DNA of 61,428 nucleotides, filler included, from Sphacelaria rigidula (lineage: Eukaryota): the NCBI GenBank assembly GCA_964200075.2. It is 10 parts of 10 records of this genome, joined end to end, with 100 filler letters (N's around TTAATTAATTAA, not from the genome) between each part and the next. Parts side by side here need not be neighbours in the genome. Positions count along the whole stretch, not along the records: positions 12,307 to 18,359 come from CAXNAA020022550.1; 9 more parts are not named here. The stretch is one strand, 5' to 3'. The position numbers were made by a program, and so were the translations under genes. Of the stretch, positions 5,981 to 52,146 are shown one piece after another. The notes below the pieces were generated by a model that was not told where the DNA came from, made no database searches, and saw nothing but the letters and a program-made list of their open reading frames with translations. How positions within the stretch are numbered: position 1 is the first letter of the stretch; every line of letters starts with the position of its first letter.

Positions 5981-6053
5981 ATATTTGTTGCTTGCCTTGG
6001 TCATTTGACCATTGACCACGCATCCCTTTCGAGGCGGAGCACCGTTCCTATTC
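5981..6053 (-). mobile_element. 3' terminus of the poly(C)-family LINE (contig ends inside it, no C-tail visible here)
   Basis: ATTTGTTGCTTGCCTTGGTCATTTGACCATTGACCACGCATCCCTTTCGAGGCGGAGCACCGTTCCTA matches 17013-17080 and 40634-40701. Confidence 0.85.
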
Positions 6054-8404: not shown

Positions 8405-8680
8405 CCTCCAGTTGTCGATACCAGAAGATGAAACAACTCAATGTAGGCTGCCATCCAAATGCAAGGCAATCATTAGGCTTCGGTCCGTACACTCGTAGCA
8501 GGATGCAGCTGACCCTCCATGCGACTCGCCGAACGATCACACCGCGGCACTTCACGCTTGGCGATTGATAGCCAACCTGATATGGCGAAAACCTGGCGCC
8601 CTCCCTCCCGGCTTTGGGGGGATATGAGATCATTAGTCTTTGGGACTACGGCATGCATCATCAGGAGTACACTCCCCCCT
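8405..8680 (+). mobile_element. Poly(C)-tailed SINE, 5'-truncated and diverged
   Basis: CCAGAAGATGAAACAACTCA...CATCCAAATGCAAG...GCAGGATGCAGCT...GGACTACGGCATGC...GAGTACACTCCCCC matches 11725-12160 and 40137-40535. Confidence 0.8.
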
Positions 8681-9287
8681 CTATATTCGATTAGCACGAT
8701 GACCCCGCGAGCTGTGCGGAAATTGAATGTAATAATCTTGTTGACTGTTTCTATGCACGCCCCTGTTTGATAACTTCGACATGTGTGGTAGTTCATGAGT
8801 CACACCGTCGACGATATTCTGGTCCTTTGACCTCACCCCTGTGCTGTAGCTCTCATGATACGTGCGATATTGAGAAGACATTTACTCCAGGGTCGTGACA
8901 GCAGGACCCTCCTGTGCGATGACGCCGATCCCTGAGGAGAAAACCGAGTTTGAATTATTTCCGGCTTGTGTTTTTATCGCGCAGGGGGGCACGATAAATA
9001 CGACGTGTGGACGGTTCGGACGAATCATCGCCCGTTCGAATAACCATATCCACGATGTCTGAGGCCTGATTGCTCGAAAGAGGGAATTTTTTGTTGACCG
9101 CTGATGGAAAACATTCCACACAATTCCACGTGCCTGGGGTGTGCGCGTACCTGGGTTGCAACGCTTCAAACAAGGGTTGAACATTATTTCATACGGTACG
9201 AATTAGACATACTGAGATCAAGTAATTTCCAGACGAATCATTGATTCGTCCAACCCTTGGACTTGTGCGATCAACCCGATTTGTGGC

Positions 9288-9758: not shown

Positions 9759-10423
9759 GTGAGATATGCTCCGCCCTCGACTCGTGGATGTCAATGAGTG
9801 ATGGCGTCCCAAGCGCGCAGGGCGGCAGGCCGGTGGAGGCGGACTGTCGTCATCCCCAATGCGATCGATCATCCCGCAAAACAAATGCGTAGCCGCAACA
9901 AAGGGAGGGAGAGAGAGACAGAGAAAGATGGTTTATAGTAGCTATGCGCGTCTACCGACATAATGAGATCAAAGTGACTTCAATGTTCGATGTCAGTACA
10001 TGGACCACACCCTGAGCACGTAAAACCTTGGATAAGGATGATGCAACTCTTGGAAATCATCTGCCCATGTAGCCCAAGGAATCCACCCAATACTTTTTCA
10101 TGGGACATGTGTGGCAGTCATTACTTCAGTAGCAAGTGACGAAGCCTCCCATCAAGGTACGGTGCTTGCTGGCAGCTCACCCCAGTATCTCCGACCCCCC
10201 CCCCCCCCCCCCGCCCTTTCCCCCCCCCCCCCTCTCCCCCGTCCCCCCCCCGCCCCCCCCCCCCCACTCGGCCCCTCCTTCCGCNNNNNNNNNNGTCTCC
10301 CATTAAGGTTGCGTGGTTGGTGGCATCTTACCCCAGTGTCGCCTCCCCCCCCCCCCCGACTGTCGTTTCCGTTCCCCATCTGCTCGTCGATCCCCGTGTC
10401 GCTCTCTCGACCGAAATCGTCAG

Positions 10424-10766: not shown

Positions 10767-11098
10767 CCTTCACGCGACTCGCCAAGCACAGTACGGCGCT
10801 TTGCGCTTTGTGATCGATTGCGAACCTGGCCAGGCCATTACCTGGCGTGCTCCGTTCCGACTTTGTAGGGATACGAGGTCAAAGAGGTGTTATGACTACG
10901 GCATGCAAGATCACGGGTACCCCCCCCCCCCCCCCCTTAGCACACCGTTCATGCGACTTGCTGAGCACATTCACGGCGCCTCGTGCTTGATGACTGCTAG
11001 CCTATCCCGGGAAAACTTTTTGTAGGGATCCGAGTTCAATGGTCATGTTGCTACGGCATGTCAGAAAGTGAGTGCACCCCCTCAACCCCCCGCCCCCG
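10767..11098 (+). mobile_element. Two tandem 5'-truncated poly(C)-tailed SINE copies
   Basis: Copy 1 ends TATGACTACGGCATGCAAGATCACGGGTAC(C)17 at ~10936. Copy 2 follows at once and ends GAGTGCACCCCC..CCCCCC at ~11098. Confidence 0.8.
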
Positions 11099-11281
11099 TC
11101 ATTTTCCCTCGCCTCGTCTCATTCCGCAGTCAATCTGTCACGTGTTACTGAAGTGATGATTGAGTTCTGGAGATATCTCCCTACCGTCTTGACCGCTGTC
11201 GAACGCGTTTTGTGTGTGTGTGTGTGTGTGTGGTGTATTTCGTGCTTCGTTTCCATGGCGTTTGTCGCAATGTCCCGGTAG

Positions 11282-11724: not shown

Positions 11725-12109
11725 GGTGGTCGAGCTAGATGATACTGTGCGGGTAGTGAAAACCTCGACTCCGCTTGAAGATGATCGTGCTACGCAGTAT
11801 TTCAATGGTGAGACACCCATGAGGCAATGTGTAAGCCGGTGCTGTCTCTTAAAGTGGCAATGCCAGAAAATGAAGCAACTCATTGGAGGCTGTCATTCAA
11901 ATGCAAGATACTCAGTACGCTTCGGACTGAACAATATTAGCAGGATGCAGCTCACCCTTCATGCGACTCGCCGAGCAAACACCCCACGGTGCTTCGCGCT
12001 TGATGATCTACTGCCAGTGTGTTCGGGCGAAAACCCGGTGTGCTCCATCCTGGCTTTGTAGGGATGGGAGGTCAATGGTCTCATGACTACGGCGTGCAAG
12101 ATCCCGGGT

Positions 12110-12146
<37 letters not shown>

Positions 12147-12160
12147 ACCCCCCCCCCCCC
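11725..12160 (+). mobile_element. Full-length poly(C)-tailed SINE (~385 bp body plus C-tail)
   Basis: The 5' GTGGTCGAGCTAGAT is shared with the copy at 40137. The body ends GGGATGGGAGGTCAATGGTCTCATGACTACGGCGTGCAAGATCCCGGGTA followed by ~50 C. A fragment also lies at ~11548-11607. Confidence 0.85.
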
Positions 12161-12306
12161 ACCACCACAACACCAACCCCCACACCCCCGCCCCACACAC
12201 CGTGACNNNNNNNNNNNNNNNNNNNNNNNNNNNNNNNNNNNNNNNNNNNNTTAATTAATTAANNNNNNNNNNNNNNNNNNNNNNNNNNNNNNNNNNNNNN
12301 NNNNNN

Positions 12307-12384
12307 CGCGTGGTCAATGAATGGCCAAACGACTAAGACAAGCAACAAATGAGTACGCCCCCCCCCCCCCACCACCCCCCCCCC
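12307..12384 (+). mobile_element. 3' terminus and poly(C) tail of the poly(C)-family LINE
   Basis: CGCGTGGTCAATG..TGGCCAAACGACTAAGACAAGCAACAAATGAGTACG(C)13. Confidence 0.8.
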
Positions 12385-12547: not shown

Positions 12548-15500
12548 TTGTTGTTGTCGTTGTCGTTGTTGTTGTTGTTGTTGTTTCTTCACATGAAAAA
12601 CCGTTGCGATATCTGCGCAGAACTATGTAGTGGGCATCCGATGCGGACGCCTCCCGTGGTCACACACTAACTGCCCCAAGCTAGGGTAAAAGAAAATCAT
12701 AAACATATGATCGGACCCAGAAACCATTCACACAGACGCGACACGAAAGAAAAAAAAATGAAAATACTAGAAAATACGAAAAAAGGAAGGAAAAAGGACT
12801 ACTGCAAGCCCTCTAAGTTCCGATGTCAGATGCGACCATTCGGGCTACTGGAGGCAAAGCCCATTGGTTCACTCAACACGCGAGCTCAAACAGGAAGGGA
12901 GCCAAACTCGAGAGCCACGATCACCACCCAAGGCGACAAACGTTGCAGGGTTCTAACCTTGCACCTCTAGAGGGACAGCTATGTTCACGAATATACTAGG
13001 TATAGCGAAAAAGCACCACATAATAACACACACCCCCTCGGGGAGGGGTGCGTTGGAGTCAGCGCTTCGTAGAAAAATAATACAAGAGGAGATGATGGGG
13101 GTCCTACCACTTTCGCCATTTTCAGTTCGGTACAAGCTGGTGACGCAGTGTTCCATCTGCCTCTACTCCTCAGAGTTCTTGCTTAATCGCACGTAGTCGG
13201 CTGGTCTCTTCCTCGATCTTGTGCTACGGGGTCATGCAAATCTCCACTCCCTGCGGCACCCCCACGTGCCGTGGTATCCTCTCTTCTCTCTTCGCTTCTG
13301 AAGACCAGAGGGCACTTTCAAGTCCGAACGTCTATCGCTTGTCTTCGGTAGAGCCATTCGTGACTTCGAAAGCTTGAAACTCGTCCCGCGGGCACTTCAT
13401 CCAGGTTTGCTCCGGGCCCTCTGTTCCTGGGCCCTCCTCCCCCACGAGTGTTGCGAATGCCAGTCGCTTCGGTAGTCGTCCGGCCGGTTATCTAGCCAGG
13501 GCTTCCGTAAACAGCAGTCGCCACTGCTAGACAATGACTTTAGCACTTTGACACCCGGTCTTCTTGTGGGCCTGGGCGCATGATAACTGTCGGTATGTGC
13601 CACGCACACGGCGGTACCTGATAACTCGCAGGAGAAGTCGGTAGTGTACCGTCCTTAGCAACCAGTAGTGCTCGCTGCGCGGGGCCCACGTTGTGCATCC
13701 ATACAGCAAGGCCTCCATTGCCTGTGCCTTCAGTAATTGGACCTTGAGTTGCAATGGTGCTTTCAGTCGGTCAAAGGGCTCTCGGGGAAACGTTCTCATG
13801 CACGCCCAAGCGGCTTTTCTCCGGTTGTTGCTCTTATGTGAGGTCGCCATCTTCGGTGACGAGCCCATCCAAGTATCGGAACTTCGTGATTTGTGCGTAA
13901 TTCTGGCCCGCTACTTCGATGACCAGTGGTGGCGGAGGCGGTGTTGCTTCTCTTTCTGCGGCTGTTTTGTTCGGTGCTTGCATCAGTAAAGTCTCTGAAC
14001 AGAGATCTCCGACACTGTCGTCCCGAAGGTCTCCAACACGCGTGCTGTGACGGTCATCATCCTCTTCAGGCCGTCAGGGGACCTCGAGACGATGGTCGCG
14101 CCGTCGGCATATAGCATTCCCCACACCGCCTTTCCGTACGCGTTCCAGAGATGTTTCCGTCTTCCTCACCATCTCCTCGCCGAGGCATACCATGCTCTTG
14201 AGGATGATTTCATCCTCGCTCAATCGCACGAGAACTATCTCGAGCGCCGCAGCGAAAAATATATTGAACAACAGCGCAGACAGCACGCCCCCTTGCCGTA
14301 GTCCCTGGGTGACCTCAAACCGCTCCGAGAGCACCCCGTCGTTCATGCGTACGCGGGCCGACATGCCACCGTCAAAATGACGGATAACGGCTATCATCCC
14401 GTCCGGAATCCCAGATCGGGCAAGCACCTGCCATAGCAGCTGTCTGTCGACCAAATCATAGACCTTTGGAGATCGACGAGGCACATGTGTGGTGATATTC
14501 TCCGTCGTCGTCCCAGTTCCTGGGCTCGGCGTACTACGAAGAACATGTCGACGGTAGATCGATTAGGTCGAAAACCGCACTCTTCCTCCAGCAGTATCCC
14601 GCGTGCTTCGCAGTAGTCGCTCAGGCGGTTGGCCACTATCTTCAGAAGCACTTTTCCTGCGTGACACCAGTGAGATTCCCGGTACTTATTACAGTCGGAG
14701 TGGTCCGATTTCTCGTAGAGCACTTTGATGGTAGCATATTTCCACTCCTGCGGGACCTCACCTCCGTTCCACACCTTGATGAGGATAAAATGGAAGCGTT
14801 CGATAACGACGGGCTCGGCTTGACGGGTCGATCTTGACTAGTTCTTTAAGGGGAGAGTTATGTTCCCGCGCTCTCCAGTGTTGCATCCCCTGTGCTGATC
14901 CAAGCGGTACCGAGTCTCCGGTGAGTAATGCTGTCGGTCCCTGCTTCACCTCCTCGATGGTGGCTAGGCTCAGTGTGGTCGATTTGGTGTTGGGCAGGGT
15001 TCGAGAAAACCTCCCCCTCGCTTCAGGATCTCGATGTTGTTCCTCAGTAGAACCACGCTCTCGTCTTTGATGAACTGCTGCCCCTCTGACTGCACAAGAC
15101 TCATCGATCTCTTGAGGTGTTTGTACAGGCCTCAAATGTCGCGGTCCTTGTAGTTCGGGTAAAGCCTCGCCACACTCCTTTTCAGGTGTGCGTGAACACC
15201 GTCGTCTATCGCAGAACCTACTTTTTTCCACACGTCTCTGGGTGCTTTCCACGTTGCCGGGGCCCGGTTGTCAACACCGTCGTTTATCGCAGTGCGTACT
15301 CCTCTCCACGCGTCTCTGTGTGCTTTCCACGTTGCCGGACCTCGTTGTCCTTCATCAGGCGCCGTGCCTCTCCTCGGTGGAAAAGTGCTGTCTCTACTGT
15401 TGCTGTCGTTTCGGGACTTCCACGCCATTCTGGCATACGTGGTATCCGTGTCTCTCCGTGCTGTCTGTGTTGCTTCGAGGATAGCTTCGGTGAACTCCTT

Positions 15501-16984
15501 CGTGGCCGCCGGTGCGGTGGTGGGTGGCTGGTATGCTCGCTCCCCGAGATTGTGCAGGAACCTCTCGATCACATGTTGCCGTGCGACTCTGACCTGCAGT
15601 TCCTGTTTACTGAACTGCCGTTGATTCGATTTCCTTCGTACGGTACGGTTGTGGGAGAAGCGGCCACCGAGGTGTGGCCACCACCGTGTTGTGACCCGAG
15701 TCAGCCTTGGCCGGCGGTGCGGCTTGGGGGTATACGACGACGTTGCGCACTTCACCTCGGTGTGCCTGCCAGGTAAGTATGTAGTCTATGCGCTTGAAGT
15801 CGCTCGCGCGGTCCCCTGCACTGCCGTCGTACGTGTGCAATATTTCACCTTTTTGCGTGCTGAAGAAGGTGTCCGTGATGGCAAGTCTGTTGTCGGCTGC
15901 GAACATTAAGAGTAGATGGTCGTTATCATTGAGCTCCCTACGTCCGTAGGCGCCTAGAACCCCCTCGTCCTGCAGGTTCTCTTCCAGTATTTTCCCCGCT
16001 CGCGTGATAGCGTCCATCAAGTCATACACACTCTCCTTCGACGGGATCCGCTGTACTAGGTCGTGAAGACTACCCCAGAACACTTGTTTGGTTCCGTCCT
16101 TGGCGAGTTCGGTTGGAAAATATGCAGCTATGAAAATGATCGCACTGCGTTGCCCCGAGATTTCAAACCGCGCTGCCATGAGGCGTTCGTCCACGTACTC
16201 AGTGGTGTAGGTAGCGTAGTTACAAATCGACTCTTTGATGGCTAGCCCCACACCGAGTTGCCCACCCGATTCGCTCCCACATTGGAAGACCCTGAACCCT
16301 GCTGCTGTACAGAGTGTTCGTCCTGCCCTCCGTGCCTCCTGCGGTCCCACCACCGAGATATTTTAGTCTCGCAGCATCATGCCGAAGGCTGTAGTCCCGC
16401 CCCACTCCGTTTGCTCCTTTCACAGCGAGGTTCCTGACGTTGCAAGTGGCTACCATACGACGTTGACTCCGCCCCCTTGCCTTCACTGTTTGTGCTGCTT
16501 TTCTAGCAAGTCTACGCCTAGCTCGGCCCCTCCTTCTCTTGTTTCTTCTCTTTTTTATGACGTTTTTCATTATTGCGCTGTGGATTTTCCCGCTGTGTTT
16601 GTTCGCCCGGTGTGTGTCTTTTCTCACGGGCAGGGGCAAGTTTCCTGCTCTGTCCGACTCTACTCCTTCCTCGCGTCTGGTGTGCGTACCCACGCAGTGC
16701 ATAGTCCTCCGACTTCTGCGTAGGATATCCTCACAGCGGTCTCAGCTGCTGCGTAGCCTCGGGGTCCAAGCTGGGGATTTCGGGTTTTACCTCATGCAGC
16801 TACCATAGTGGTCCCGAAACGAAGCACACGCCAACCTCGCGATCGCGGTGTCCCTTGACATTCAACTCAGGCTCCCCGTGGGTACGAGGCTCAGGCTCGC
16901 GTCTCTGCCGTTGCTTTTGAAGGGTCTTCTTGTGGTGTAAGTATGAATCCTGGCAAACTCCTGCCCACTACAGTATGGGCAGTC
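12548..16984 (-). mobile_element. Near full-length degenerate RTE-like LINE (APE + RT) with (CAA)n tail
   Basis: APE motifs VATCNVRNL, GVGLAI, RIDYIL, SGHN at ~15680-16450. RT motifs QEWKYATIKVLYEK, ECGFRPNRSTVD, GLRQGGVLSALLFN, LYADG at ~14090-14760. Thumb region LLYGCTTW. Many frameshifts. (CAA)n tail at 12548-12584. The 5' boundary is approximate. Confidence 0.9.
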
Positions 16985-18252
16985 GGGGGGGGGGGGGGGG
17001 GGGGGGGGGGTTATTTGTTGCTTCCCTCAGTCGTTTAACCATTGACCACGCATCCCTTCCGAGGCAGAGCACCGTTCCTACTCCCAGCAGAAGCACCTCC
17101 ATCGTTCAGGTGCTCATTGCGTTTCTTCCAAACATTACACGAAAACCTCTTACATATCTTATCCCGTCCTGTTTTGCCGTGTGTGGCCACCATTTATCTC
17201 CTAGTATAGCCATCGTTTTCTCGCTCTTGTCTAATGCATCAAACGATTACATGCCACCTTCGTTCACGTCTCGCATATTCGTCTCTAGCACGTCCCGTTC
17301 TTCCTTGTATACTTCACATTCTGCAACTATATGACTTCTGCTCTCTATTGCTTTCCTACAGGGGCAGTTCTGTGCATCTGCTTCCTCCTCCACACGACTA
17401 CTGGTATATCTATTTCTGCTTTCTAGCAGGTCCAGGTCCTCCACCCGATATCGCAGTTTCAGATTATTCCACGCGTCCATTGGGCCATGCAGATATGTTT
17501 TAATCCCTATCCCCTCTCTCAACCCCCCGTATATCCTCAGGTGTTCTTCCTCGTCTACCTTGCGTCTGAGCGCTCATTTTCCTCTACTTTCTATCATGTC
17601 TCTTACTTTTGTCTTGTACCCCGCGCCTTCACCTATGGACAGTATTTCGTTTTGGTTTCCTCCCATCTCCTTCCCTACTTTCTTGACTTCTTTATCCGAC
17701 CTTGTTCCAGTATGCCCTCTCGTACTTTTGTTCCATGCAGCCCCATCAACCATAGCTGGCAACCTCTTTCTTTGCATGTTCTGTAAGCTATATTGCCACC
17801 CAAATTTCCTCCCGTCTTTGTTTCAAGTGAGTACATTCCCAACTCTGCACTCAGTGCTGTTTTACTCGTCGTTGTCGAGCATCCAAGTATTTCCTTAGCT
17901 ACTGCCGTCTGTACTGTTCCCAACCTCTCTACCAACTTTACGTTCCCCTCCCATACTTCTCCTGCATATTCCAGCTTTGGTAAGGTCACGTTCATCAGGA
18001 TAGATATTAATCCCAGTGTCTACGTGCGAGTCTCTGAGGATCACATCTATCCTGCCTATCTATGCCTCACCCTTTTCTATTACTTTATTCACGTGTGCAT
18101 CCCAAAAACAGTTTTTTGAGATCTCTCCACCGAGGTATGTATACTGTTCTACGATCGGCAGTTCCTCTTCTCCCCGCTTCCGCTTGAACTTGATCGTATT
18201 TTTGTCATCTTGGTTACATACAAGTACCGCGCATCTGCTAACGTTCGCTGTC
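16985..18252 (-). mobile_element. 5'-truncated LINE with poly(C) tail and TSD
   Basis: RT C-terminal region (YTYLG, WDAHVNKV, PKLEYAGEVW, LSAELG) and C-terminal Cys/His knuckle CPCRKAIESRSHIVAEC. 26-nt C-run at the 3' end (G26 at 16985-17010). Flanked by ATGGGCAGTC(G)n at 16975 and ATGAGCAGTC(G)n at 18253. Confidence 0.9.
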
Positions 18253-18459
18253 ATGAGCAGTCGGGGGGGGGGGGGGGGGGGGTATTTTCGGACAGGCTGG
18301 TTTGGGAGGGGGCCGGTTGACTCGGGGGGTCCCCGGGCCCCCCCCAGAAAAAACTGAGGNNNNNNNNNNNNNNNNNNNNNNNNNNNNNNNNNNNNNNNNN
18401 NNNTTAATTAATTAANNNNNNNNNNNNNNNNNNNNNNNNNNNNNNNNNNNNNNNNNNNN

Positions 18460-18533
18460 CGTCACGAAAGGGGTTCGTGGGCCATGGGCAAACGAGTAAG
18501 GCAAGCAACAAATTAGCCCCCCCCCCCCCGCCC
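18460..18533 (+). mobile_element. Diverged 3' terminus and poly(C) tail of the poly(C)-family LINE
   Basis: CAAACGAGTAAGGCAAGCAACAAATTAG(C)13. Confidence 0.7.
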
Positions 18534-23269: not shown

Positions 23270-23379
23270 CCTTATTACCCAGGTAGGTACAGCTAGCCTG
23301 TGACTACGGAAGGCGTCCGCATCAGATGCCCAGTACAAATGTATACCGCGCAGATATCGGAACGGTTTTTAATGTGAAG

Positions 23380-23440
<61 letters not shown>

Positions 23441-24654: not shown

Positions 24655-26575
24655 CGGCTGTTATTAGCTCCTCTATGTCATGTCCATATCCGGGCTGTGT
24701 TATGGTAGCTTCACGACAAAGAAGGGTTAGTGTCTGTATTAAATGCCTATTCAATGTCCATGTCCGGGCCATGTTATGGTAGGTGAAGGAAATAGGAAAG
24801 TTAGCGTTTTTATTTTCGTGTCCATGTCGGCGGGCCGGGTTATGGTAGGTGAAATAAAAGGGTGGATAGCTCCTCTATTTCATGTCTATATCTGGGCTGT
24901 GTTATGGTAGGTCAAAGAGGAGGGAAGCTTAGCTTCTCTGTTTCAATGTCTATCTCCGGGCTGTGTTATGGTAAGCTGAAGGAAAAGGAGGGTTAGCTGC
25001 TTCATTTCATGCCTATGTCCAGGCTGTGTTATGGTAGGTCAAAAAGAAAGGAGGGTTAGCTTCTGTATTTTCATGTTCATGTCCGGTCTGTTTTATGGTA
25101 TGTTGAAGGAAACGGATGGGTTAGCTCCTTCATTTCATCTCCATGTCCGGGCTGTGTTATGGTGGGTTCAAGAAAAGAGGATGGTAAGCTTCTTCGTTTT
25201 ATGTCCATGTCCGAGCCGTGTTATGATAGGTTGAAGGAAAATGAGGATTAGCTTTCTACTTCAGGTCCATGTCCGAGCTGTGTTATGGTAGGTTCAGGGA
25301 AAAGGAGGGTTAGCTTCTGTATTTTCATGTCCATGTCCGGGCTGTGTTATGGTATGTTCAGGGAAAAGGAGGGTTAGCTTTTGTATTTTCATGTCTACGT
25401 CCGGGCTGCGCTATGATAGGTTGGACAAAAAAGGAGTGTTAGCTTCTTATTCTCATGTCCATGTCCAGGCTGTGTTATGGTAGGTTAAAGGACAAGAAAA
25501 GTGAGCTTATATATTTTCATTTGTATGTCTGAGCTGTGTTATGGTAGGTTAAAGGACAAGAAAAGTCAGCTTTTTTATCTTCGTGTCTATGTCCGGGCTG
25601 TGTTATGGTAGGTGAAATGAAAAGGAGGGTTAGCTTCTTCCTTTCATGTCCATGTCCGGCCTGTGTTATGGTCGTTTAAAGCAAGAGTATAATTAGCTTC
25701 TCTATTTCACGTCCATATCCTGGCTGTGTTATGGTAGGTCAATGAGAAAGAAGGGTTAGCGTCTGTATTAAATGTCTATTTAATGTTTATGTCCGGGCTA
25801 TGTTATGGTAGGTGAAGGAGAAAGGAAAGTTAGCTCTTTTATTTTCGTGTCTATGTCCGGGTCGGGTTATGGTAGGTGAAATTTTAGGATGGATAGCTTC
25901 TCCCTTTCATGTCTACGTCTGGGCTGTGTTATGGTGGGTAAGAGAGAAAGGAGGGTTAGCTTCTCTGTTTCCATGTCTATGTCCGGGCTGTGTTATGGTA
26001 GGTTGAAGAAAATGGAGCGTTAGCTTCTGTATTTCATGTCCATGTCCGGGCTGTGTTATGGTATGTTCAGGGAAAAAAAGGAGGGTTAGCTTTTGTATTT
26101 TCATGTCTACGTCCGGGCTGTGTTATGGTATGTTGAGGAAAAAGGAGTGTTAGCTTCTGTATTCTCATGTCCATGTCCGGGCTGTGTTCTGGTCGGTTCG
26201 AGAAAACGAGGGATAAGCTTCTCAATTCAATGTCTCTGTCCGGGCTGTGTTATGGTGGGTTCAAGAAAAAAGAATGGTAAGCTTCTTCGTTTTATGTCCA
26301 TGTCCGAGCTGTATTATGGTAAGCTGGAGGAAAATGAGGGTTAGCTTTTCTATTTCAGGTCCATGTCCGGGCTGTCTTTTGGTATGTTCAGGGAAAAGGA
26401 GGGTTAGCTTCTGTATTTTCATGTCCATGTCCGGGCTGTCTTATGGTATGTTCAGGGAAAAGGAGGATTAGCTTCTGTATTTTCATGTCCATGTCCGGGT
26501 TGTGTTATTATGGTAGGTCAACGAGAAAGAAGGGTAAGCGTCTGTATTGAATGTCGATTTAATGTCTATGTCCAC
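24655..26575. repeat. Minisatellite, ~59-60-bp unit, ~32 copies, with higher-order structure
   Basis: Consensus GGGCTGTGTTATGGTAGGTTCAGGGAAAAGGAGGGTTAGCTTCTGTATTTTCATGTCCATGTCC. A longer variant unit recurs at ~24725, ~25753 and ~26533. Confidence 0.95.
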
Positions 26576-30765: not shown

Positions 30766-30844
30766 GCTCCGTCCCGGCTTTGTGGGGATGCGAGGTCGAT
30801 GGTCTTACGACTATGGCAAGCATGATCATGAGTACACCCCCCCA
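30766..30844 (+). mobile_element. 3' end of the poly(C)-tailed SINE at contig start
   Basis: GCTCCGTCCCGGCTTTGTGGGGATGCGAGGTCGATGGTCTTACGACTATGGCAAGCATGATCATGAGTACACCCCCCC. Confidence 0.8.
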
Positions 30845-34266: not shown

Positions 34267-34299
34267 GTGGGGGCCTCATTTATTGCTTGTGCTGCACTT

Positions 34300-34435
34300 G
34301 GTGGGGAGTTGGGGAGAGGGCGGGAGGGAGGGGGGAGGAGGGGGGGCGGGGGGGCGTACTCATTTGTTGCTTGCCTTTGTCGTTTGACCACTGACCACGC
34401 ATCCCTTGCGAGACGGAGCACCGTTGCTGCCTTTC
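34300..34435 (-). mobile_element. 3' terminus and C-rich tail of the poly(C)-family LINE (intronic)
   Basis: G-rich tract 34301-34355, then CGTACTCATTTGTTGCTTGCCTTTGTCGTTTGACCACTGACCACGCATCCC...GGAGCACCGTT. Confidence 0.8.
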
Positions 34436-40535: not shown

Positions 40536-40615
40536 TCACTTATCCGGTATTGAATATTACTGACAGTGTTCAATATATAATAGCCGTGATATTCTTGACA
40601 GTCTTTTTTTTTCGA

Positions 40616-42030
40616 GGGGGGGGCGGGATACGTATTTGTTGCTTGCCTTAGTCATCTGACCATTGACCATGCATCACTTTCGAGACGAAGCACCGTTCCT
40701 ATTTCAAGTAGAGACGTCGAACATTTGGGCTCCCGTTACGTTTCTTCCATACATTGAACAAAAACCTTTTACATATCTGATCACCGCCCTGTTTCGCCGT
40801 CTGTGGCCACCATCTACCTCCGAGTATAGTCATCGTTTTCTCCATACTCTCTAATGCATCAAACTATTTTGTCGCCAGCTGCGTTTAATTCCCACATCTC
40901 CCCCTCTAGCACGTCCCGTTCCTCCTTGTATAGTTCGCATTTTGCACCTATATGAGTTCTACTCTCTATTGCCGTGCCACAGGGCAGTTCTGTGTACCTA
41001 CTTCCTCCTCCACTCGACTACCGGTATATCTTCATTCTGGCAGGTCCAGGTCCCCCACCCGAAATCGCCCTCTCAATTTTTTCGCCGCGTCCATTAGGCC
41101 ATGCAGATACTGTTTCATTCCTACCCCCTCTCTCAACCCCCCGTATATCTTCAAGTTTTCTTCCTCGTCTACTTTGCGTCTGAGCGCTCATTTCCCCCTT
41201 ATTTTTATCATGTCTCTTACTTCTGTCTTGTACCCCGCGCCTTCACCTATGGACAGTATTTCGTCTTGGTTTTTTTTCATCTCCTTCAACACTTCCTCAA
41301 CTACGCTATTCCACCTTATCCCAACCCGTCCGTTCGTCATTTTCATCCGTACAGTCCCATCAACTATGGCTGGCAATCTCTTTCTCTGCATGTTCTTTAC
41401 GCTATATTGCCATTTCAATTCCCTCATGTCTGTGTTTTAAGTGGGCACATCCCCAATTCTGCTCTCAAAACTGTATCACTCGTTGTTTTCGAGAATCCAA
41501 GCATTTTCTTAGCTGCGGCCATTTGTACTGTTTCGAGCTGCTGCACCAAGTTCGCATTCCGCTCCCATACTTGTACATATTCCAGCTTTGGTATGATCAC
41601 GTTCATCAAAATACATCTCTTGATCACGTCCAACTTGCCTATCTGTGCCTTACCCTTTTCTATTACTTTGTTTATGTGTGCATCCCAACAACAGTCTGGG
41701 ATATCTCTACGGCAAGGTGTGTATACTGATTCACGATTGGCGATTCCGCTTCTCCCCACTTCCATTCGAATTCTACCGGGTTCATTCGTATCTTTGTTAC
41801 ATATAAGTACCGGGCATTTGTTATCGTTCGCCGCCACTCTCCATTTTCTAGTGTTTTCTAGCGCCTTCTCTATTTGCTTCTGCAATTCTTCTGGTGCTTC
41901 TGATATCCCCACGGAGTAATCCGCGAACATCAATCCCGACACCGTATCTTCCCCCACCTTGACTCCTTGCTTAGCGTCTTTTATTGCTATTATCCGGTCA
42001 TTAATAAATACCTTGAATAAAGTGGGTAAT
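40616..42030 (-). mobile_element. 5'-truncated poly(C)-family LINE, second long copy
   Basis: PTLFKVFIND...GLMFADYSVG (RT catalytic region), WDAHINKV, PKLEY, LRAELG and the Cys knuckle. 3' end identical in structure to 17011-17100, with G8 at 40616-40623. Confidence 0.9.
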
Positions 42031-43071
42031 ACAAACGTAACTAATTAATTAATTATAAAAGATGAACGATAATGAATAAATAAATAAATAATTTAATTCA
42101 AACAAATTATATAAATAAATTGATTAATTAAAGATTGTTTGAGGATGGATGGTTGAATGGTTGAGGATGGATGGTTTTATTTTTTGAACAAGGGGAAGAC
42201 AATATATCGCATATCCTTGTTCGATCCCTCGTAAGATATCAAACTATTTCGGCATATCCCCGTCTAGCATCAGAGCACTTACGGCACATTCTTTCATCTT
42301 TTTCATCATTCCCCACATTTTGCCTGTAGTGCCAGTTTCCCACATTTTTTTCCACCACCCATTTCTCCATACTGTGTCATAGGCCTCCTGTACGTCTAGA
42401 AAAAAACACTACGTTGTTATACTAGTCAGCATCAGAATTTTTCAGAATTCGTAGTTGTAGTTTTTGAGTTTTTCTCGAGTACTATTCTTCACTACCAGTT
42501 GAAAGTGCTAGCGCCGGTAGATTTTTTCAGGGGGAAATTGTTGGCCGCACTTAAACTGCAGTGCCGAGGTTGTTTTTTTGGGGGCGATAAGCACTATATA
42601 CCCCGTTTGTCAGGAGGGTGTTATTGACCGTTTTTGGTCTAACAAAAGGAGTTTTCCGGCTCTTCCACAACGAAACGGTAAATATTCAGATAAATGAACA
42701 CGTAAAAAAATATTCACAAAAACGATCGAGATCGTGTTTCCCTCCTATAGTGCACAGACCTCAGTCTAGCATTTTCTGCGGATGACCTCTCTTCGTTTTT
42801 TTTTTGCCCAACATTTTCCATGAGCATTTGTTACGACTTAGTCTGCTTTGTCGTTCTATTCGACTTTTTTGTTTTGTTCTGTTCCTTTTTCATTCGGGGC
42901 GTGTTTTGTTGTTGTCTTCACATTAAAAAACCGTTCCGATATCTGCGCGGTACATTCGTACTGGGCATCTGNNNNNNNNNNNNNNNNNNNNNNNNNNNNN
43001 NNNNNNNNNNNNNNNTTAATTAATTAANNNNNNNNNNNNNNNNNNNNNNNNNNNNNNNNNNNNNNNNNNNN

Positions 43072-48750: not shown

Positions 48751-49016
48751 CGACTGCAGAACATCATGCTATGATAATAGCGGAGGGGGGTATTTTGGAT
48801 AGCTTTCTTCCAAGAAGTTTATACTTTAACCGTCGTTGGAGGCAGCAACGGTTGTTCGAACGCGCTTGTTCCCGAACAATAAGGCTCATTCACACAGCTT
48901 GATACCGCTTATACTCAAATACAAGCGCACCGCGATTATGTGAGGTTGTTTGACGCACGTATGAGGCCATTTTTTCGTGGGATCGAACCCCCCCCCCCAC
49001 CCACCCACCCCTGATT

Positions 49017-49124
49017 AGACACCCATGAGGTAGTGTAAAAGCCGTGACTGTCTCTGGAAGTGGCGATGCCACAGAATGAAGCAACTCATTGTAGGCTGTC
49101 ATCCAAATGCAAGATAATCTGTAA
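49017..49124 (+). mobile_element. Poly(C)-family SINE, 5'-truncated, cut by contig end
   Basis: AGACACCCATGAGG...CTCTGGAAGTGGCGATGCC...CATCCAAATGCAAGATAATC, immediately preceded by a C-run (48988-49011). Confidence 0.8.
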
Positions 49125-49639: not shown

Positions 49640-50212
49640 ACGTGAGTGAGCCACGAGCATGTGTCCCTGGGGTGAGCTACCGGGCGTAGCTCATCCGCTC
49701 CTGTTTTCCCCGGGTGAGCTACAAGAGCTGCATGAGCTGCACATGTTTGCCTTGGGTGAGCTATCGAGCGTAGCTCATCCGCATATGTTTTCCCTGCGTG
49801 AGCTGTGAGAGCTACATGAGCTGCACATGTTTGCCCTGGATGAGCTTTCAACCCGTAGCTCATCAGCTCATATTCGGCCTGAGTGGGCTATGGGAGCTGT
49901 ATGAGCTACGCATGTTTGCGATAGGTGAGCTACCAATCCGTAGCTCATCAGCTCATATTCGTCCTGGGTGAGCTATGAGAGCTGCATGAGCTACGTATGT
50001 TTGCCCTGGATGAGCTACCAACTCGTAGCTCATCAGCTCATATTCGCCCTGGGTGAGCTATGAGAACTGCATGAGCTACACATGTTTTTCCTGGGTGAGC
50101 TACCAACTCGTGGCTCATCAGCGCACGTTTACCTTGTGTTGAGCTATCGGACGTAGCTCACATGTACATGTTTGACTACAAGTGAGCTACCGCCCGCAGA
50201 TAAGCTAGCTCA
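49640..50212. repeat. AGCT-rich palindromic minisatellite, ~80-86-bp unit, ~6-7 copies
   Basis: CATGTTTGCCCTGG.TGAGCT recurs at ~49658, 49743, 49825, 49911, 49996 and 50081. Each unit contains TGAGCTA...TAGCTCA inverted pairs. Confidence 0.9.
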
Positions 50213-50285
50213 CAAGCTGTCCCACGTGTGCAAGGCTGAATGCTTACGCGCAGATTTAACCTTGCCTGGTTCTGTAGGTTAGTTC

Positions 50286-52146
50286 ATGGCCCGCGTTATT
50301 CTGGACTCTGGGTCCGCGCTCACGTCAATCGGTGTGGGGTTGCTAGAACAGATGTCTTCGCAGTTTGGCGGCGCTCAGGTTCAGATTCCATTCGAAAACG
50401 GACCGCAAACGGCGCAAACCGCCACGGGTGCTCCCGTGACGGTTACACACAAACGGTGCCAATTACTGTCACCGTGCGTACGCCGTGGGGGGCTGTGCAG
50501 TTGCAGCCCATTACGTTCGCTGTCATGCCCGGTAAGGACAACGTAGTTCTTTTCGGGATGGCGACAATGAAGAAGCTTGGGATTGATCTATATCTGCTGG
50601 CGTTGGAGAAATTACGTCCGCGTGCTGTGCCGGTGCAAAACGGCGTGGAAACCCCCAGTTACCTTGGTGCAAGGCGTGTGATAGTATCCATACGATCATT
50701 CCAGAGCACCAATGAGGGGAAGGCTTCTGCTAATAAAGCGGTAGAGCGCTCGGTCGATCGGGGGCCTGATATGTTCATGGACCCAGCGGAGGAAAGAGAT
50801 GCACGAGAACGTGCGCTTGAGGATAGTGTGTGGCAGGCGGAACAGAAGGGCCTGAACGTCGATGGCGCACATTGCCTGGGCGATATTTTGACTCGTCGCG
50901 TAGATACATTTCGCCGTGCGCTGCGTGGTGATCCGCCAGCGCGCGTTGAGCCCATGAGGGTGCAGCTTAAGCCCCAGGCAAATGCGGTGAAGGCCAAGCC
51001 CAGACGGTACGATCCGGTGAAGACCGGGTGGCTGGCCTCATGCATCGCAGCTTTGGTGGCGTTTGGTTTAGTGGTGAGGAACATCCAGGCTGTGTGGACG
51101 AGTCCGGCGATGGCGGTGCCGAAAAGGGACACATTCCGTTTGGTCAGCGACTATCAGGCGGTGAACGCGCAAGTGGAACAGTCTCCGGGGGTGATACCAA
51201 GCCAAAACTCCTTTAACAGAGTGCCGGAAGAACACTGTGTGTGGCCTCACATGGATTCCCACGTTCGCGAGTTCGTTCGCCAGTGTTTGCATTGTGTAGA
51301 CACTCTTGTTGATCAAATTGTATCTCATTTTGGCGGTACTGTGCACGGTACTGCGCCAGGTGAAGTTGTTCACTTTGATTTTCTGTACGTCGGAAATAGC
51401 GGACCTGAAGGTGCTAATGCTTTGCCTGAGGAGGATGGTTTTCGGTACGTTTTGGTTATCATGGATGATTTGTCCAATTTTGTTGGCTTGGAGCCAACCG
51501 ACGCTTGCACCGCCGAGGTTACGGCTAAGCACTTGCTCCATTGGTGCAAGACTTTGGGGGCGCCGCGTGTTTGGGTTAGTGATACCGCCACGCACTTCAA
51601 GAATCTAGTGATCGCGTAGCTGAGCGATGGGCTGAAGGTGCAACACCTATTTGCTGTTGCGTATACCGCTTGGTCGAATGGTGCTTGTGAACGCATGGTG
51701 AAAGAGATCATTCGTGCGTTGCGGTCTAACTTGTCGGAACAAAGACGGCAGGTGTTTGAGTGGGTTGATGTTTCGCCAGCCGCCCAGTGGGCGCTGAATA
51801 CTAAGTTTTCGTGAACGCTACCGTAACACGCCGTATTGAGTGATGTTTGGGCGTACGCCGCGTACAGCGTTTTCCGCGCTGGCTTCTGTCACTAGCGTCG
51901 AGTGGAACGTCGATGTTATGGATGCTGATTTGTCACGTGACAAGGTTCAAGGCGTGGTTGACGAGCAAGTGCGGGTTTGTAATGAAGTGCAAGCTGCGAT
52001 TCGTATTGTATGCCCGTGTTCGTAGGCAAGGTGTGACACCAGAGTTGATGCTCACGTGGACAGGTCCATGACGAGTGATCGGAGCCGATAACGCTCACGT
52101 GTATTCGGCGCAGAACATTGTTTCTGGCGCCGTGCACTCGGCCCAT
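50286..52146 (+). mobile_element. Degenerate, internally deleted Ty3/Gypsy pol (protease, RT N-terminus, integrase)
   Basis: Aspartic protease VILDSGS. RT start WTSPAMAVPK..FRLVSDYQAVN. Integrase WPHMDSHVREFVRQCLHC, VHFDF, VSDTATHF, NGACERMV. The RT YxDD and RNase H are absent. Confidence 0.9.

Follow-up and report, generated by a model that had tools for sequence, protein, structure and literature searches.

In a window of 61,428 bases from the genome of Sphacelaria rigidula (NCBI GenBank assembly GCA_964200075.2), the stretch at 16975-18282 on the minus strand was identified as a dead, 5′-truncated copy of a very abundant, L1-like lineage of long interspersed nuclear elements (LINEs) of the apurinic/apyrimidinic endonuclease (APE) type, in which a C homopolymer replaces the poly(A) tail. 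C runs follow most 3′ ends of this lineage in the window and precede most of its 5′ junctions. Target-primed reverse transcription, primed by a G tract on a template that ends in C, fits these data best, and we assign it a probability of roughly 0.55. The window consists of ten 6,053-bp pieces with joints of the form N44-TTAATTAATTAA-N44, and the copies compared therein lie at unlinked places of one genome; one scaffold gap, N10, is present at 10285-10294.

A truncated LINE copy framed by C runs

Read on the minus strand, the layout of this copy, hereafter copy 1 of family A, is ...GAAAATA-C20-GACTGCTCAT-element-...AGCAACAAATAA-C26-GACTGCCCAT-ACTGTAG.... A preliminary description, made from the sequence alone, had proposed the order C20, decamer, truncated reverse transcriptase (RT), C26 and decamer, and both its coordinates and its letters were confirmed, as follows.

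18263-18282, minus strand: C20 run (G20 on the plus strand), outside the 5′ decamer; the target-site duplication is proposed to start in this run
18253-18262, minus strand: 5′ copy of the target-site duplication, GACTGCTCAT, matching the 3′ copy at 9 of 10 positions
17011-18252, minus strand: 5′-truncated, frameshifted family A LINE of 1,242 nt, from the C-terminal part of the RT through a CxCx8Hx4C knuckle to the stop codon
16985-17010, minus strand: C26 tail (G26 on the plus strand), directly adjoining the stop codon
16975-16984, minus strand: 3′ copy of the target-site duplication, GACTGCCCAT, the decamer after C26

The two decamers stand in identical register relative to the C runs, and the chance of at least nine matches at a fixed register is 3e-5. 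The last codon, AAA, occupies 17014-17016 and the stop codon, TAA, 17011-17013, and the C run begins at the very next base. By tblastn and in translations, the body (17011-18252), corresponding to the C-terminal third of a LINE open reading frame 2, aligned, with frameshifts, to residues 945-1360 of P0003, a relative of 1,360 aa that was found via homology to the second window copy (40616); copy 1 and that second copy, at 40616-41831, are 77% identical across 1,258 nt. A Cys/His knuckle of the type CxCx8Hx4C follows the RT near the C terminus and reads CPCRKAIESRSHIVAEC in copy 1 and CPCGKAKESRTHIVGEC in P0003. The duplicated non-C decamer separates the upstream C20 from the element, which it adjoins directly, indicating that the upstream run is target DNA that opens the duplication rather than an addition made at the end of complementary DNA (cDNA) synthesis. 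Indeed, C20-decamer-element is the order expected for a duplication that starts inside a C run. Copy 1 thus shows a target-site duplication, a 9/10 decamer plus the C runs around it, and other copies are truncated at many points.

C runs follow the 3′ ends of three families

Families A, C and D have a common 3′ end, which was recognized both in DNA alignment and as remnants of one peptide. Their further copies in the window are listed below.

40616-42420, minus strand: family A copy 2; RT interrupted, extending toward the piece end; last codon at 40635, spacer CGTATCCCG, C8 (40616-40623), then TCG-A9
34290-34432, minus strand: family A copy 3; about 70 nt of the 3′ end with the last codon at 34363, TGAGTACG, then a C-rich tail of about 60 nt (C7GC7...)
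5984-6053, minus strand: family A copy 4, incomplete at the piece end; the sole family A copy without a C run
18460-18529, plus strand: family A copy 5, incomplete at the piece start; last codon at 18512, TTAG, then C13 (18517-18529)
12307-12384, plus strand: family A copy 6, incomplete at the piece start; terminus at 12349, TGAGTACG, then C13-ACCA-C10
40117-40545, plus strand: family C copy; C12-A-C5 right before its first base, 40136; 3′ end ...TAGTA, then C5TTC3TTC3
11726-12206, plus strand: family C copy; tail C36-A-C13, then C/A-rich to the piece end; 5′ flank T10, not C
10767-11110, plus strand: two family C copies, head to tail; 10767-10919, C17 (10920-10936), TT, 10939 to about 11075, then C5TCAAC6GC5
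8418-8689, plus strand: family C copy with a short tail, CTCCCCCCTC; a C5 run 11 nt upstream of the 5′ junction
30766-30843, plus strand: family C 3′ end, incomplete at the piece start; C7 follows
48988-49124, plus strand: 5′-truncated family C copy, preceded by C11-ACCCACCCACCCC
10146-10357, plus strand: two family D 3′ ends; the first with C18 and a C-rich tract of about 70 nt, the second (past the N10 gap) with C13, then GACTGTCG

As determined by script, a C run of at least 5 nt began at most 15 nt from 11 of the 13 3′ ends of families A, C and D; against the window background of 1.7% per site, the probability of at least 11 such ends is 3e-18. On inspection, a twelfth end (40521) was also found to carry a C run, gtaCCCCCTTCCC. 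All ends of family C (8669, 10919, 11075, 12110, 40520 and 30836) and of family D (10194 and 10344) are followed by C runs or C-rich tracts. Five of the six family A copies, from four pieces, carry a C run after the terminus and the copy at 5984 lacks one, in agreement with the earlier count, and at the termini 40635, 34363, 18512 and 12349 a spacer of 3-11 nt leads to C8, C7GC7..., C13 and C13ACCAC10, respectively. The tail of copy 3 is then followed by a second 3′-end fragment of about 23 nt bearing its own short C run.

The preliminary description had named two patterns that would speak against a C tail, namely a run of fixed length with conserved sequence after it and an A tail after the run. 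Run lengths ranged from 5 to 36, and pairwise local alignments of eight downstream flanks returned no conserved sequence at a score of at least 36. An A run lay nearby at only one of the 11 family A and family C ends (A9, 3 nt past the C8 at 40616). A recurrent TTAGCAC after family C tails was rejected as a conserved motif, being the start of the second head-to-tail copy. If a period of 1 is allowed, these runs form a simple-repeat tail of variable number directly after the element end (C5 to C36, at 11-12 of the 13 ends).

As a control, an unrelated LINE type in the same pieces was examined, and all three of its 3′ ends, ...ATGTGAAGA followed by (CAA)n, carry a different tail:

12548-12689, minus strand: (CAA)n-tailed LINE 3′ end
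23275-23440, plus strand: (CAA)n-tailed LINE 3′ end
42902-42971, minus strand: (CAA)n-tailed LINE 3′ end

Homopolymers of at least 10 nt in the window comprise 17 of C/G, five of T and none of A; among the 17, ten are tails of families A, C and D, and three lie at most 20 nt upstream of 5′ junctions. Taken together, the common 3′ ends, the (CAA)n control and the homopolymer counts demonstrate that the C tail is a property of the lineage, not of the assembly.

The longest tail (12111-12206) consists of C36-A-C13 and then about 45 nt of C broken almost solely by A; ahead of the closing GTGAC at the piece end it holds one G and no T, and C-to-T decay would give T's. The family C copies at 11726 and 40136 start on the identical base (GTGGTCGAGCTAG) with unrelated DNA upstream, suggesting that family C may be a non-autonomous element of about 390 bp with a LINE-derived 3′ end. 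For a head of the short interspersed nuclear element (SINE) type in family C, ARAGORN returned no tRNAs and Rfam no matches at the gathering score. A heptamer, GACTG(C/T)C, recurs after C runs in both decamers of copy 1 (16980-16984 and 18258-18262) and in the family D copy at 10345 (10358-10364), and also after the A9 beyond the tail of copy 2 (40597-40603); this recurrence exceeds 7-mer chance, and the cases are too few for a nick-site motif.

The conserved terminus is the coding end of ORF2

The conserved 3′ terminus noticed in the preliminary description does recur, but its nature had to be corrected: it is coding sequence that ends in a stop codon, namely the last ~15 codons of open reading frame (ORF) 2 (...NGQMTKASNK*). 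The stop codon lies 0-8 nt before the tail in three of the six family A copies; it is TAA in copy 1 and TGA in copies 3 and 6, in both of which TGA is followed by GTACG and then the C run. Because the conserved terminus is the ORF2 end and the C run stands at or near the stop codon, the element has no 3′ untranslated region (UTR).

The six relatives that keep their C terminus (P0001-P0004, P0006 of Ectocarpus and the near-twin of P0003) end in ...NG(Q/L)MT(K/T)ASNK, and a GCVVNG-type motif occurs 5-9 residues before the C terminus in many of 125 relatives, down to about 40% identity. Since this motif is kept in distant relatives, the extreme end of ORF2, which adjoins the tail, is under protein-level constraint, and the conservation of the 3′ end is explained by coding at least in part. 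At the RNA level, the 3′ end was predicted to form only a weak 5-bp hairpin, for which RNAalifold returned 8 pairs at -2.3 kcal/mol, the covariation term being 0. Poly-proline C termini, representing read-through of C tails, were found in none of the 125 relatives, a count that says nothing about tails, since predicted proteins never extend past the stop codon.

Full-length relatives are single ORFs of ~1,330-1,360 aa, with no separate ORF1 seen. P0003 carries Exo_endo_phos and RVT_1 domains and, before the endonuclease, an N-terminal extension of ~165 aa, in which (residues 1-165) no Pfam family was matched at E ≤0.01. Exo_endo_phos (PF03372) was matched in the full-length relatives P0003 and P0004 and is missing from copy 1 through its 5′ truncation, and RVT_1 was matched in both proteins at E values of 1e-31 to 2e-33, in keeping with a non-LTR (long terminal repeat) RT. 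The best solved relative was human L1 ORF2p (8uw3 and 8c8j matched; E 6.6e-21), with R2 close behind (8.8e-20), E values too similar to choose between clades. The ESM Atlas held only generic APE/RT clusters, some with zf-RVT, and indicated no clade. No relative was found in the viral contigs scanned with P0003. Matches of a 14-nt 3′ motif in metagenomes (119 loci) were discarded as chance, as none matched the element beyond the motif in blastn.

C runs precede most 5′ junctions

At six of nine 5′ junctions, a C run of at least 5 nt ended at most 20 nt upstream, at distances of 10 (copy 1), 1, 16, 0, 11 and 13 nt, against a background of 2.4% (P ~1.6e-8). An absence of C-run enrichment at the starts of target-site duplications, which the preliminary description had regarded as telling against its proposal, was therefore not what the window held. 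By the yardstick used for microsatellite LINEs, the same simple sequence on both sides of essentially all copies, six of the nine junctions have a C run within 20 nt and three have none. A tenth junction (10939) lies 2 nt past the C17 tail of the preceding copy, forming a head-to-tail pair, and between the two family D ends there is nothing but a C-rich tract and the gap.

Such flanking runs could also reflect target choice only, that is, an element specific for existing (C)n/(G)n tracts whose tail is mostly split target DNA. This agrees with the C runs on both sides of many copies (6/9 5′ junctions and 11-12/13 3′ ends) and with the many very short copies with runs at both ends in sequencing-run contigs (see below), yet long tails also occur where the 5′ side has no C run: at 11726 (T10 upstream, C36 and C13 downstream), 10767 (C17) and 34432 (about 60 nt, C-rich). 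Moreover, the 3′ run of copy 1 (26) exceeds its 5′ run (20), a non-C decamer is duplicated too, and in a genome of 48% G+C long C runs should be rare unless they are made by the element. We consider target choice by itself quite unlikely.

Another explanation is untemplated G-tailing, in which the RNA would end at the stop codon or spacer and the RT would add G's to the 3′-OH of the nicked DNA in terminal-transferase fashion before jumping to the RNA; a possible repeat of this at the cDNA end would place C runs at both junctions, and jumps to a second RNA would give tandem copies. Non-templated base addition is known for RTs such as those of R2 and Moloney murine leukemia virus. The tails are indeed of variable length and often pure (C7 to C36), the spacer is constant per subfamily, as if it marked a fixed template end (GAGTACG in copies 3 and 6; GAGTAC or GGGTA in family C), C runs lie 0-1 nt from two 5′ junctions (40136 and 61350), and head-to-tail truncated copies linked by C runs do occur. 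However, an untemplated 5′ run would be expected between the duplication and the element, whereas the C20 of copy 1 lies outside the decamer, and four of the six upstream runs are 10-16 nt away from the junction. Untemplated G-tailing is thus an unlikely source of the runs.

Sequencing-run contigs carry the runs

Contigs of public sequencing runs (Logan), for which neither read type nor platform is recorded, were set against 16500-18359. Five runs, one of them labelled as an algae metagenome, contain the piece wholly or partly, and the four with at least half of the sampled words (X1-X4, from two studies) were used; positions 16976-17022 were masked, which places the C26 outside the comparison, and absence is not demonstrable from such data. 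An X2 contig of 1,026 nt spans 18152-18276, that is, the 5′ end of the element, the decamer and 14 G, with 0 differences. Furthermore, 12 of 15 among the joints listed link element positions 17054-17084 to 18260-18263, and they occurred in X1-X3 (two studies), not X4; these joints represent loci with only the last 44-74 nt of the element and at least 20 C's directly before it. In X1, the summed word depth over the element was 1e5-1.5e6, as compared with 27 at 16748-16809 and 101 at 16872-16933 in the flank; the element depth fits thousands of copies, although a summed word depth is not a copy number.

The preliminary description had counted C runs missing from long or Sanger reads, a two-color poly-G artefact, as a refutation. 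Such poly-G calls, or contigs misjoined via shared homopolymers, would make the runs an artefact. Homopolymers are error-prone, the longest run lengths (C36) are untrustworthy, and C26 falls within masked 16976-17022, outside the read comparison. Nevertheless, the runs are internal and are bordered on either side by unique sequence and by matching decamers; they follow one element end in 11-12 of 13 cases and do not follow the (CAA)n-tailed LINE; and in either orientation of the piece they read as C along the element strand. In addition, contigs of three runs from two studies have G runs of at least 20 at the element end, and one spans 18152-18276 without a difference. An artefact is therefore highly improbable.

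A proposed model of G-tract-primed integration

In the favored reading, G-tract-primed target-primed reverse transcription on a C-ended template, the RNA template would present a C run right after the ORF2 stop codon, derived from the tail of the parent copy via a read-through transcript or from addition to the RNA. The endonuclease would nick the bottom strand in or beside a G run, the G-ended primer would pair with the C run, and reverse transcription would begin there. A second nick some bases downstream would produce a duplication that opens with C's. Every insertion would leave a new C run, so that old tails would become preferred targets and strings of the form copy-(C)n-truncated copy-(C)n would build up head to tail. 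Copying of the parent tail by read-through, with slippage keeping its length variable, would need no new enzyme. The preliminary description had proposed just such a mirror image of L1 integration; the variable C tail, the upstream enrichment of C runs and the order of the parts support it in part, but the C end of the RNA, its pairing with the primer and a preference of the nuclease for G/C runs are features that we infer, the last of them from insertion sites only.

Several points weigh against this reading. Three of the nine 5′ junctions (34432, 11726 and 10767) have no C run within 20 nt, and 11726 has T10 instead, so that insertion often, but not necessarily, occurs at a C run; one of the six family A copies has no C run at its 3′ end; and a clean duplication with a non-C part was found only in copy 1, the duplications elsewhere being indistinguishable from the runs. 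BLAST and alignment ends served as the 5′ boundaries, which may err by a few bases, and the sample is 61 kb of one genome. As to the reads, the joints could be detected only because the reference carries a G run there, which makes them a biased sample, and the public runs may include the source sample of the assembly itself.

The C run might instead be made anew in each round, either by a nucleotidyltransferase that adds poly(C) to the LINE RNA or by an RT that adds a G homopolymer to the nicked DNA. The T-less tail at 12111-12206, a single case, hints at synthesis rather than decay. We regard making anew as rather unlikely; if it did occur, the lineage would use a homopolymer code orthogonal to poly(A), in which the tail is C, the primer is G and the nuclease is adapted to G/C runs. 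A mixture of the models above, or an explanation outside them, is likewise improbable.

Other features of the window

Directly downstream of copy 1 lies a near-full-length, frameshifted LINE of another family, the (CAA)n-tailed type (about 13400-16970, minus strand), with an APE region and an RT (weak RVT_1). Its first ~230 nt (16748-16974) are near single-copy in the reads, which makes its 5′ boundary provisional. The remaining features are as follows.

24678-26555: tandem array of about 1.9 kb; unit of 64 bp, 28 copies, 74% matches, with higher-order periods of 127 and 318
49658-50122: 85-bp tandem repeat (5.5 copies), just upstream of the next feature
50240-51616: open frame of 459 aa with weak rve and Integrase_H2C2 matches, both below the Pfam cut-offs

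The 459-aa frame together with the 85-bp repeat is probably the remnant of an LTR-type retroelement, as judged from these matches.

Implications and comparison with known systems

To our knowledge, the well-studied homopolymer-tailed retrotransposons are all poly(A)-tailed, which ties them to the mRNA 3′-end machinery of the host and to T-rich nick sites. If G-tract priming is true, the identity of the tail would not be fixed by the mechanism, and the lineage would offer a natural test of the model in which the primer pairs with the tail during target-primed reverse transcription. For biochemistry and for genome-writing tools, it would supply an RT and a partner endonuclease whose choice of primer and template departs from the usual one. 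It would also explain the many long G/C homopolymers of this genome. G/C tracts are able to fold into G-quadruplexes and i-motifs, and short-read assemblies can break at them. SINE and LINE finders based on poly(A) would miss C-tailed families, for which the repeat annotation of brown algae would need to allow.

A full-text literature search, in which bracketed "poly(C)" was unsearchable and which left Repbase and Dfam, where an entry is possible, outside its scope, yielded no description of a poly(C)-tailed LINE or SINE. The passages concerned in PMC3627910 hold nothing on tails. Among the matches listed, the only work on a cellular C-rich 3′ RNA tail was PMC5727444, which, in the part available, reports polycytidylated mitochondrial mRNAs in Chlamydomonas. 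That system, as presented there, is organellar, belongs to a green alga and has no link to retrotransposition, and it would be a precedent only if the LINE RNA were C-tailed post-transcriptionally.

The closest named relatives are P0006, P0009 and P0010 of Ectocarpus sp. CCAP 1310/34, each annotated as an unnamed protein product, which are 47-71% identical to P0003 over the RT and the C-terminal part, in keeping with a brown alga or a near relative as the likely host; this comparison is at the protein level only. P0006 has the same last residues, ...NGQMTTASNK.

The R1-clade LINEs that target microsatellites, Dong, Waldo, Mino, Kibi and Koshi, were reportedly treated by Kojima and Fujiwara in 2004. 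Like them, the copies described here often lie between stretches of the same simple sequence. Unlike them, three of nine 5′ junctions have no run, copy 1 has a duplicated decamer that is not a repeat, and the protein relatives found here are L1-like and not demonstrably R1-like.

Stringent LINEs with simple-repeat tails include UnaL2 of eel, with (TGTAA)n, the I factor of Drosophila, with (TAA)n, and CR1. The lineage resembles these in that a conserved 3′ end, which the RT could recognize, runs straight into a repeat whose copy number varies, and slippage would explain the length variation. It differs from them in that the repeat unit is a single C and the conserved 3′ end is coding, with a weak 5-bp hairpin lacking covariation, and pairing of primer and tail, as in L1, is suggested by the C-run enrichment at 5′ junctions.

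Mammalian L1 has a poly(A) tail and a TTTT/AA nick site, and its T-ended primer pairs with the tail. With L1 the lineage shares an N-terminal APE, an RT and a C-terminal Cys/His knuckle (as seen in the relatives or in the copy here), frequent 5′ truncation, very high copy number, a homopolymer tail of variable length, a duplication that opens with the letter of the tail, and the use of old tails as landing sites. Its relatives, unlike L1, are single ORFs with an N-terminal extension and no separate ORF1 seen, and its stop codon adjoins the tail, with no 3′ UTR and no AATAAA signal. The tail homopolymer is C instead of A, and not one A run of at least 10 nt occurs in the 61 kb, where C tails of up to 36 nt were found.

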